DNA of 60,042 bases from Escherichia phage Greed. Location: sequence record KX534337; one strand, written 5' to 3'. Below, one piece after another: positions 40,254 to 41,174 of the stretch. The position numbers were made by a program, and so were the translations under genes. The notes beneath the pieces are model-generated. The model was given only the letters and a program-made list of their open reading frames with translations. It was not told the origin of the DNA and did not search any database. Each line of letters opens with the position of its first letter. Within the stretch, counting starts at the first letter, position 1.

Positions 40254-40280
40254 AGCGCGTCTTCGGGCGCGCTTTTTATT
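40254..40280 (+). terminator. Rho-independent terminator after the tail fibre gene
   Basis: AGCGCGTC/GGCGCGCT stem with TTCG loop followed by TTTTTATT. Confidence 0.55.
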
Positions 40281-40407
40281 GGCTGTCAATCCCAATTTAC
40301 AAAATCTTTACATTTGGATCATTGTAAAAAGCATGTTAAGGGCTATGCTTTACTTCGTAACCAGTTGGTTACATCCGCTTAACAAATCCATATATGGAGA
40401 TTTTCCT

Positions 40408-41115
40408 ATGTCTGACATGACTCTTTTACCTACTAATCTCGGTGGCGACGGTTTCGGTGGTGAAGCTGGTGCGGCTGGTATCGGTGGCGCGATCGGTGGC
40501 TTAATTGGTTCCTGGATCGGTAATGGTTGGGGTGGCAATGGTGGTTGGGGTGGTCGCGGTAACTTCGCTGGTCCGGTGGAAGTGCAAGCTTCTGTTGACA
40601 CCAACGCAATTCTGCAAGCTATCAACAACGGTACTCTTCAGACCATTCAGGGGCAGAACGGTACTAACCTGACTGTTGAGCGCTCCGCTGCTTCTACCTA
40701 TAACGGTATTACTCAGCAGAACACTCAAAACATGCTGGCTTCCGTTCAGGGCTTTGCTGGTCTGAACACGCAGATCCAGGGCGGCACCAGCCAAGTGCTC
40801 GCGGCTCTGTGTAACAACGAAGCAGCTAACATTACCCGCTCCTTCCAGGCTCAGTTAGAAGCTCAGAAGTGTTGCTGCGAAACCAACCTGAACATCGAGC
40901 GTCAAGCAGAAGCTACTCGTGCTCTCCTGCGCGATCAGCACGCACAAGCGCAAGCTGTTCTGATCTGTGACCTGAAGTCCCAGTTGCAGGAAGCTCGCTT
41001 TGCAAACTCTCAGTTGGCGCAGACGGCTGGCCTTACCTGTAAAATCAATCAGGTTGAGCAGTTAGTTAACTTTAAACTGCCAACTCCTCCGACTCCTCCG
41101 ACTGGCTGCTGCTAA
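40408..41115 (+). CDS. Glycine-rich, cysteine-containing protein of unknown function (moron; track ORF starts at 40279)
   Basis: ATG at 40408 with GGAG RBS; N-terminus GGDGFGGEAGAAGIGGAIGGLIGSWIGNGWGGNGGWGG, Asn/Gln/Thr-rich middle, CCC and C-terminal PTPPTPPTGCC; flanked by terminators. Confidence 0.5.
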   Translation: MSDMTLLPTNLGGDGFGGEAGAAGIGGAIGGLIGSWIGNGWGGNGGWGGRGNFAGPVEVQASVDTNAILQAINNGTLQTIQGQNGTNLTVERSAASTYNGITQQNTQNMLASVQGFAGLNTQIQGGTSQVLAALCNNEAANITRSFQAQLEAQKCCCETNLNIERQAEATRALLRDQHAQAQAVLICDLKSQLQEARFANSQLAQTAGLTCKINQVEQLVNFKLPTPPTPPTGCC

Positions 41116-41136
41116 TTGTTGAAGTGTGGTTAAACT

Positions 41137-41174
41137 AAAGCGCCTTTCGCTCCTCCGCTTGGGGCGCTTTTAAC
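41137..41174 (+). terminator. Putative terminator after the glycine-rich gene
   Basis: AAGCGCC/GGCGCTT stem with a long loop followed by TTTT. Confidence 0.35.

Follow-up and report, generated by a model that had tools for sequence, protein, structure and literature searches.

A putative high-expression cassette of Escherichia phage Greed encodes a member of a large, uncharacterised phage protein superfamily, tentatively a membrane-anchored rod

What does the gene encode that follows the lateral tail fibre gene of Escherichia phage Greed, and which signals control it? The window analysed here is the whole 60,042-nucleotide stretch of sequence record KX534337, in which positions 40254 to 41174 hold an open reading frame (ORF) between two hairpins. 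The first-pass annotation had described this region as a terminator-bracketed moron with its own promoter-like region and had proposed that the product could be a fibre-tip adhesin or a toxin- or immunity-like factor. The coding sequence lies on the plus strand (40408..41115), starts with the ATG at 40408 and encodes a protein of 235 aa, for which the working name GLY is used. A Shine-Dalgarno (SD) sequence, GGAG, was read from the sequence 8 nt before the ATG (40396..40399, +). A 278-aa ORF extended to a TTG was ruled out as the gene, since all homologues begin at MSDMTL. The sequence confirmed the ORF and the layout described earlier, namely a Gly-rich N-terminus, a middle part rich in Gln, Asn and Thr, a CCC motif and GCC at the C-terminus; the 235 residues include 32 Gly, 28 Ala, 25 Gln, 21 Asn, 20 Thr and 8 Cys. 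The window belongs to a Seuratvirus (Queuovirinae) coliphage with about 99% identity to vB_Eco_SLUR75, slur01 and CAjan. Region 40200-41250 matched the Seuratvirus coliphages vB_Eco_SLUR75, slur01, CAjan, SeppeHuegi and SA80RD at 95-99% identity, and in these records the gene is labelled 'hypothetical protein'. In the literature on 9g, Seuratvirus, BASEL and crAss phages, a proteomic, transcriptomic or functional statement on the GLY gene was not found.

Judged by its codon usage and its flanking signals, the GLY gene is predicted to be a high-expression cassette of its own, with the strongest predicted expression in the genome. Its frequency of optimal codons (Fop), scored on E. coli-preferred codons, was 0.747, the highest value among 53 ORFs; the major capsid gene reached 0.719 and the neighbouring genes 0.46-0.51. 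In 11 of 12 lineages the Fop of the GLY gene exceeded that of all three downstream partners. The gene also deviates in base composition: its GC content, 50-55% versus 35-46% in the surrounding DNA, is the highest in the genome and exceeds that of the major capsid gene.

On the upstream side, an intrinsic terminator ending the lateral-tail-fibre transcript was called by the scan at 40254..40278 (+), where a stem-loop (40254-40273) is followed by a T-run. It comprises an 8-bp stem with six GC pairs, a 4-nt loop and TTTTT, its fold of -14.1 kcal/mol was more stable than those of shuffled sequences (z = -2.7), and an equivalent GC hairpin with T-run precedes the gene in nearly all related loci. 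On the downstream side, a GC-rich hairpin with a short T-run was identified by folding at 41138..41171 (+). Here a 9-bp GC-rich stem with a long loop (41138-41169) is followed by only about 4 T; the terminator scan did not call it, and its fold was no better than those of shuffles (z = -0.8). The depositors of SA80RD annotated the equivalent of this element as a terminator, and its GCGCC...GGCGC stem is kept in related loci, often without the T-run; it is more aptly regarded as a leaky terminator or a stabiliser of the 3' end. The earlier description of the gene as an accessory unit flanked by terminators was upheld.

The promoter was less obvious in the window itself. A sigma-70 scan of 40274-40407 gave no match of at least 9/12, and the candidate sigma-70-type promoter at 40322..40349 (+), TTGTAA (40322-40327)-16-TATGCT (40344-40349), was read by eye and fits in 8/12 positions. 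In T1-like relatives the same relative place is occupied by TTGTCA-16-TAGAAT, a tool-called 10/12 match that lies exactly upstream of the leader hairpin. All 16 lineages compared share one layout: a terminator is followed about 100 nt on by a -10-like hexamer (TATGCT, CATACT, TAGAAT, TAAATT, CATAAT and others), 4-8 nt on by a hairpin of 5-8 bp, and 19-35 nt beyond this by the SD, the ORF and the 3' hairpin. These comparative data support a promoter ahead of the GLY gene, and the promoter-like region claimed earlier gains its support from the conserved -10-like boxes and the T1-like sequence, although the match in the window remains at 8/12.

The leader hairpin of phage Greed, the palindrome GTAACC-AGTT-GGTTAC at 40357..40372 (+), has a predicted location at the 5' end of the transcript or close to it. 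Since differing loop lengths threw the 3' arms out of register in the MAFFT alignment, the stems were anchored by hand to read covariation. The paired arms changed in a compensatory manner (GTAAC/GTTAC, GTAGC/GCTAC, GTGGC/GCCAC, CCACC/GGTGG and GCGAAC/GTTCGC); one G-U variant was seen among the lineages, and the stem was broken in none. The palindrome may instead be a co-evolving DNA operator. The motif GTAAC-N-GTTAC occurs twice in the window against 0.43 expected occurrences, and its second copy lies at 58458-58474 (+), GTAACGATATGAGTTAC. Strong hairpins are also present in the leaders of the scaffold-like (22292-22386) and major capsid (23255-23381) genes, examples being GTCAC-ACGG-GTGAC, which directly precedes the SD, and a stem of 11 bp that follows TTGACA. 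Leader hairpins may be a trait common to the genes that this phage expresses most. From the codon bias together with the layout of leader, terminator and 3' stem, the GLY mRNA is predicted to be stable, very abundant and largely monocistronic.

To which family does this putatively abundant protein belong? GLY matched phrog_9288 at E = 1.2e-129, with residues 1-235 aligned to 234 profile positions. A word-indexed search yielded 169 homologues, tblastn with GLY found 219 phage records, and a profile search returned 129 cluster representatives, of which 52 scored E <= 1e-10; P0184 and P0200, two large matches of the representative search, were discarded as unrelated repeat proteins. Alignments of 22 sequences, of 37 diverse members and of 115 members were used, while alignment A2 was too divergent for finding loci. 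All 37 diverse members matched phrog_9288 and 15 of them also phrog_16490; both families were likewise matched by distant members with a transmembrane (TM) helix, and a Clostridium-phage protein proved homologous to the GLY family in hhalign (probability 99.5%). GLY thus belongs over its full length to phrog_9288, and its distant relatives to both families. Membership says nothing about function, because both families lack annotation, and phrog_9288/phrog_16490 is a large, very widespread and uncharacterised phage protein superfamily. Scans of GLY with Pfam (E <= 0.1), NCBIfam and PADLOC gave no match, Pfam searches with the 37 diverse members gave isolated chance matches only, and phmmer of GLY against the PDB returned nothing significant.

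Several parts of the protein are strongly conserved. The acidic N-terminal peptide MSDMTLLPT (aa 1-9; 40408..40434, +) contains four residues, M1, M4, L6 and P8, that are invariant in 22 sequences. It is followed by a Gly/Trp-rich segment (aa 12-55; 40441..40572, +) with GxxxG repeats in IGGAIGGLIGSWIG, which is the proposed membrane anchor and is weakly similar to the fusion peptide of influenza HA2. The CCC motif (aa 155-157; 40870..40878, +) reaches 90% conservation or more across 115 sequences and is also kept in the Clostridium-phage and crAss-like homologues. The Pro/Thr-rich tail PTPPTPPTGCC (41080..41112, +) was defined in alignment A1, and distant members carry tails of the PxPxPAY...GCGC type. 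Within the family, MSDMTLLP, the Gly/aromatic GxxxG segment, QGFAGLNT, CCC, ATRxL, LCDxK, SQxAQTA and the Pro/Thr-rich tail are conserved. Compared with the phrog_9288/phrog_16490 superfamily, GLY has the same architecture of acidic N-tail, Gly-zipper or TM segment, long helix, CCC, ATRxL, SQxAQTA and Pro-rich, Cys-bearing tail.

The genomic surroundings of the homologues were compared next to those in phage Greed. GLY is usually the first gene of a four-gene cassette with p122, p176 and p94 that is common to Queuovirinae, Drexlerviridae, Eiauvirus and PY100 (ORF29-32 in PY100, P858_08-11 in eiAU). In Queuovirinae, Drexlerviridae (KarlJaspers), T5-like Epseptimavirus, eiAU and a gut siphovirus contig with a homologue of 29% identity, the gene lies directly after the lateral-fibre or chaperone genes, where late and early transcription converge. 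Other settings are different. In Yersinia phage PY100 the cassette is a plus-strand island among minus-strand genes, away from the tail genes; in Clostridium perfringens phages a distant member (phrog_16490) lies in the early region; another distant member was found in an SPbeta-like contig of 32% GC; and in crAss-like Suoliviridae the homologue lies two genes downstream of a holin gene and a LysB/Rz-like gene and is annotated 'spike protein/glycoprotein'. One crAss-like homologue, cr53_1 gp66 (locus 5728-6642), contains an in-frame TAG and adjoins a holin gene, a LysB/FtsL-like gene and a glycine-zipper 'peptidoglycan-associated protein-like' gene. Given the diverse contexts in PY100, Clostridium, SPbeta-like and crAss-like genomes, the GLY gene is an autonomous unit, and its link to fibre genes is positional but not obligatory.

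Selection and loss were then compared among relatives. The ratio of nonsynonymous to synonymous substitutions (dN/dS) against 15 relatives was 0.04-0.31, and judged by this ratio the GLY gene is under purifying selection. Still, the gene is dispensable in relatives, as broken copies occur in viable isolates. SeppeHuegi carries an amber codon (CAG->TAG at codon 83, 4427-4429 of its locus). In VogelGryff the protein is truncated near residue 181 (locus 4106-4771), and the same deletion took p122, p176, p94 and p67. In KurtStettler an in-frame deletion fuses the C-terminus of the fibre chaperone to GLY residue 20, and in WildeMaa only the first 90 residues are left. The KurtStettler fusion is encoded by bas22_0024 (3127-4659 of the locus), whose 510-aa product, annotated 'putative lateral tail fiber chaperone', joins the S74 C-terminus (...LLVQVCRE) to GLY; the deletion cost GLY its N-terminal peptide and took the promoter and terminator as well. 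All four BASEL Seuratvirus isolates seen carry a damaged copy, while the gene is intact in CAjan, slur01 and others. A pseudogene with several stop codons is present in the T5-like Salmonella phage vaffelhjerte (3794-4480 of the locus), which suggests that the gene is being lost in this T5-like Salmonella phage lineage. Other Epseptimavirus records hold decayed copies after the lateral-fibre gene, with several stops or as remnants covering 21% of the query.

With its deviant composition, its promoter-like region and its terminators, the dispensable and self-contained gene resembles a moron. The term does not apply in the strict prophage sense: the carriers identified were mostly phages of groups classified as virulent, and a search of 185,579 genomes of bacteria and archaea yielded no close relative. 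Morons and other autonomous units such as lambda lom and bor, HK97 gp15 and T4 soc share with GLY a promoter-like region, flanking hairpins, deviant composition, dispensability and spread across unrelated phage families, and T4 soc is a monocistronic, terminator-flanked accessory gene. Unlike morons, GLY is carried by virulent phages, usually heads a four-gene cassette and has an extreme predicted expression.

The same comparison bears on the adhesin and toxin functions proposed before. GLY is 98-99% identical across phages with unrelated lateral tail fibre genes, and because it stays nearly identical beside entirely different fibres, it lacks hypervariable segments of the adhesin type. Furthermore, it matched no GP38 family and is unlinked to tail genes in PY100 and the Clostridium phages, all of which speaks against a fibre-tip adhesin. 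A colicin- or microcin-type toxin or immunity factor with a Gly-rich translocation domain was not upheld either: the Pfam, NCBIfam and PADLOC scans were empty, no domain follows the helix described below, neither a cytotoxic domain nor a double-glycine leader register was found in GLY, and colicins were absent from the best 60 PDB profile hits of the family. A likeness in composition (the Gly/Trp-rich N-terminus), the neighbouring fibre gene and release at lysis are what these proposals have in their favour; the fibre brings its own S74 chaperone, and either function is most improbable. In general terms, a toxin- or immunity-like role may exist. A role as tail-fibre assembly chaperone was rejected, since the fibre has its own Peptidase_S74 domain, GLY is constant across fibre types, viable phages lack the gene or carry a broken copy, and in PY100 it is located away from the tail genes.

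The structure of GLY was modelled with AlphaFold2. With the 115-sequence alignment, a single continuous alpha-helix of about 23 nm was predicted for aa 65-222 (40600..41073, +), which includes the CCC motif. The mean predicted local distance difference test score (pLDDT) was 73, with block means of 94-98 for residues 131-210 and low confidence for residues 1-64; the alignment of 22 sequences gave the same topology at low confidence (pLDDT 49.6). Foldseek searches of the confident model against PDB and BFVD found nothing, which is expected for a single helix. In residues 65-125 a hydrophobic period of 3.65 residues was detected, above the 95th percentile of shuffles, while a signal at 3.5 was absent; the GLY helix is thus not a classical heptad coiled coil. 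A helix of this length (158 residues, about 23 nm) cannot exist by itself, so we infer from the model that GLY probably oligomerises.

The N-terminal segment points towards a membrane. At the position of the Gly-zipper, distant homologues have a true TM helix (e.g. GGAWIFFLFFLLAWGG), and 30% of the 115 members carry a hydrophobic segment of TM grade there. The N-flank of this segment is net negative in 95% of the 115 members and the C-flank is about neutral, and this acidic N-flank favours an N-out topology on sequence grounds. Taken together, we infer a membrane location for GLY, with the N-terminus out and the rod in the cytoplasm, and a biological role at the envelope: in infected cells the protein may be an abundant oligomeric rod that is anchored N-terminally in the membrane, is non-essential and acts at the envelope, a reading that we put forward tentatively and hold to be quite possible, but short of probable. 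According to this model, the GLY gene would head, as its by far most strongly expressed member, a portable accessory cassette in which weaker read-through feeds the MazG-like gene and two others. The Gly-zipper segment would anchor the protein in or on the cytoplasmic membrane, several copies of the long helix would assemble into a rod, and the CCC motif in the rod together with the Cys-bearing, Pro-rich tail could cross-link copies or bind a partner. GLY would be no component of the tail fibre; it would accumulate in large amounts at the envelope and act as a non-essential fitness factor, most likely in superinfection exclusion or in protecting or conditioning the membrane until lysis.

Several observations weigh against such a membrane-anchored rod. 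The Gly-zipper of GLY itself is only marginally hydrophobic (maximum Kyte-Doolittle hydropathy over 19 residues, KD19, of 1.27) and there is no signal peptide, so that membrane insertion is uncertain. The conserved Cys motifs fit an oxidising setting, extracytoplasmic or in the virion, better than the cytoplasm. The 5'-hairpin design is also found before the scaffold-like and capsid genes and would fit an abundant late structural protein, and the position after the tail fibre recurs in several phage families. Exclusion proteins are usually not made at capsid-protein levels and are not known to be conserved across phyla.

An alternative is a virion-associated fibrous protein, i.e. a trimeric coiled-coil whisker, collar, decoration fibre or fibritin-like helper of lateral-fibre attachment, which would be made in structural amounts and stapled by disulfides after lysis. 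The codon bias of GLY, which equals that of the capsid gene, the leader hairpins shared with the scaffold-like and capsid genes, and the location at the end of the late operon after the lateral-fibre genes in Queuovirinae, Drexlerviridae, Epseptimavirus, eiAU and the gut siphovirus contig would all agree with it, as would the long helix with its recurring TN/NT motifs and 3.65-residue period in residues 65-125, and Cys motifs of a kind suited to the cell exterior; dispensability is also known from T4 fibritin, Hoc and Soc. However, the strongly hydrophobic TM helix of distant homologues would be unexpected in a soluble fibre, the cassette of PY100 is away from structural genes and the Clostridium-phage homologue lies in the early region. 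Co-transcription with a MazG-like enzyme, the host-type promoter in T1-like relatives and the lack of a match to any solved phage structure also argue against a virion fibre, which we regard as unlikely. T4 fibritin (wac) and other trimeric coiled-coil fibres resemble GLY in having a long helix, in being non-essential and in lying near fibre genes, but GLY has neither a foldon-like or other globular domain nor heptad periodicity, and its N-terminal segment is hydrophobic or TM.

A different lead came from the comparison of the family profile with the PDB. Among the best hits only influenza HA2 was found, with its fusion peptide and helix A (HMMER, E = 1.4e-3). Its scores of 12-20 bits were each above those of at least 495 of 500 local-composition shuffles in six tests, which combined two profiles with three HA2 sequences. 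In hhalign the match was not reproduced (probability 5.7%, different region). Since the lead passed shuffling yet failed hhalign, HA2 is kept as an analogy only. What is common to GLY and HA2 or other class I fusion proteins is a Gly/aromatic-rich N-terminal peptide followed by a long helix, in GLY an uninterrupted one; a C-terminal TM segment, a second heptad repeat, a 3.5-residue periodicity and a cleavage-activated N-terminus are missing. The resemblance may explain the labels 'putative sugar-binding protein' and 'spike protein/glycoprotein'.

Following this analogy, GLY could be a membrane-fusing or -disrupting factor in the manner of class I fusion proteins or spanins, whose Gly-rich peptide would insert into a membrane while, during lysis or entry, the rod spans or reshapes the envelope. 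Apart from the HA2 match, the independent annotation of the crAss-like homologue and its position close to holin and LysB/Rz-like genes are in line with this idea. A rod of 23 nm approximates the width of the periplasm, and spanins also have conserved Cys residues and are dispensable in the laboratory. On the other hand, the failure in hhalign, a complete set of holin, endolysin, i-spanin and o-spanin genes elsewhere in relatives and the occurrence of the family in phages of Gram-positive bacteria, hosts without an outer membrane, are difficult to reconcile with it, and the acidic N-flank without signal sequence argues against export of the rod. We therefore consider a fusion factor distinctly unlikely. 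A canonical spanin or holin was rejected: the full lysis cassette of SeppeHuegi (endolysin, holin, i-spanin, o-spanin) is annotated just before the terminase genes, and GLY has no lipobox. Compared with the spanins lambda Rz/Rz1 and T1 gp11, GLY is likewise predicted to be an anchored helix of about periplasm length, with conserved Cys residues, a Pro-rich end and dispensability, but it differs in its acidic N-flank, the lack of a lipoprotein partner, its homologues in phages of Gram-positive hosts and the separate spanin genes in relatives. In its broadest form, the idea would make the phrog_9288/phrog_16490 proteins a previously unrecognised class of membrane-active rods, present in phages of Gram-negative and of Gram-positive hosts as well as in crAss-like phages, that remodel, bridge or fuse host membranes. 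Each would be anchored by a fusion-peptide-like or TM segment, possess a helix longer than 20 nm and a Cys knot, and be made at capsid-protein levels from a dedicated stabilised mRNA; this is a speculative proposal that we would not expect to hold.

GLY might also be packaged into the particle. As an internal or ejection protein, it would be targeted to the particle by its N-terminal peptide, and once ejected it would use its glycine zipper to build or line a host-membrane channel. The first nine residues are indeed strongly conserved, glycine zippers are typical of channel-forming helices, abundance and dispensability are known from T4 internal proteins, and one distant member weakly matched a tape-measure PHROG. 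Nevertheless, neither a protease site nor processing is known, the tape-measure protein normally has such a role in siphoviruses, and the genomic contexts of the family are very diverse, which makes a packaged protein very unlikely.

With the membrane-anchored rod as the preferred reading, GLY can be compared with superinfection-exclusion proteins such as T5 Llp, T1/phi80 Cor, HK97 gp15 and T4 Imm. Like GLY as proposed here, these are non-essential and membrane-associated, have their own promoter and lie beside host-recognition genes. GLY differs from them in that it shows no sequence similarity, is much larger and rod-shaped, is conserved across phyla and is predicted to be far more abundant. 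The type of cassette is familiar; the protein superfamily is uncharacterised.

The neighbouring genes were inspected as well. The upstream gene (37303..40236, +) encodes the lateral tail fibre, with a phage_tail_N domain and a C-terminal Peptidase_S74 intramolecular chaperone domain. It has the lowest GC content at third codon positions (GC3) of the ORFs examined (0.246; GC 39.9%), and only its first approximately 120 residues are conserved with relatives, which is consistent with a recent exchange of the distal fibre module. Downstream, p122 (41187..41555, +), a MazG-like putative nucleoside triphosphate pyrophosphatase, follows GLY in nearly all loci. It contains a His-rich tract, EHNHEHEKEEYKHAH, and a conserved EMEYxEL...KELTDLAAAC motif; weak matches were obtained to PRA-PH and to 2p06, the latter being the only, weak MazG-like match in the PDB. 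The next gene, p176 (phrog_8329; 41571..42101, +), has invariant D, H, C and E residues and gave no match in a profile search against the PDB, and the cassette partner p94 (phrog_7239) lies at 42088..42372 (+). Beyond the cassette, an ORF of 67 aa (phrog_25697; 42384-42587, +) was found only in Seuratvirus among the compared loci. Its product is rich in Cys and Gln with a Pro-rich stretch (MCGNTNRCC...AACNC...PVAPTP), and is thereby reminiscent of GLY with its Cys, Gln and Pro features. A hairpin at 42594-42615, for which a minus-strand terminator was called, parts the plus-strand cassette from the minus-strand genes, and the first two of these, within 42617-43101 (93 aa and 68 aa), appear by eye to encode small multi-TM membrane proteins.

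These results have implications for annotation as well as for phage biology. The labels 'putative sugar-binding protein', 'lateral tail fiber chaperone' and 'spike protein/glycoprotein' find no support in the present results and should not be propagated. The unit of promoter, 5' hairpin, SD and 3' hairpin appears to be a compact module for high expression, of natural origin, which phage engineering could put to new use. In a well-sampled group of coliphages, the most codon-optimised gene, ranking above the capsid gene, is one without a known function, and the superfamily of its product spans T1-like, T5-like, Queuovirinae, Clostridium and crAss-like phages. If the proposed class of membrane-remodelling rods were real, it would represent a step of infection or release beyond the holin-endolysin-spanin scheme. 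If GLY acts at the membrane, a widespread player would be added to the biology of phages at the envelope, be it for exclusion, for conditioning of the membrane or for release.

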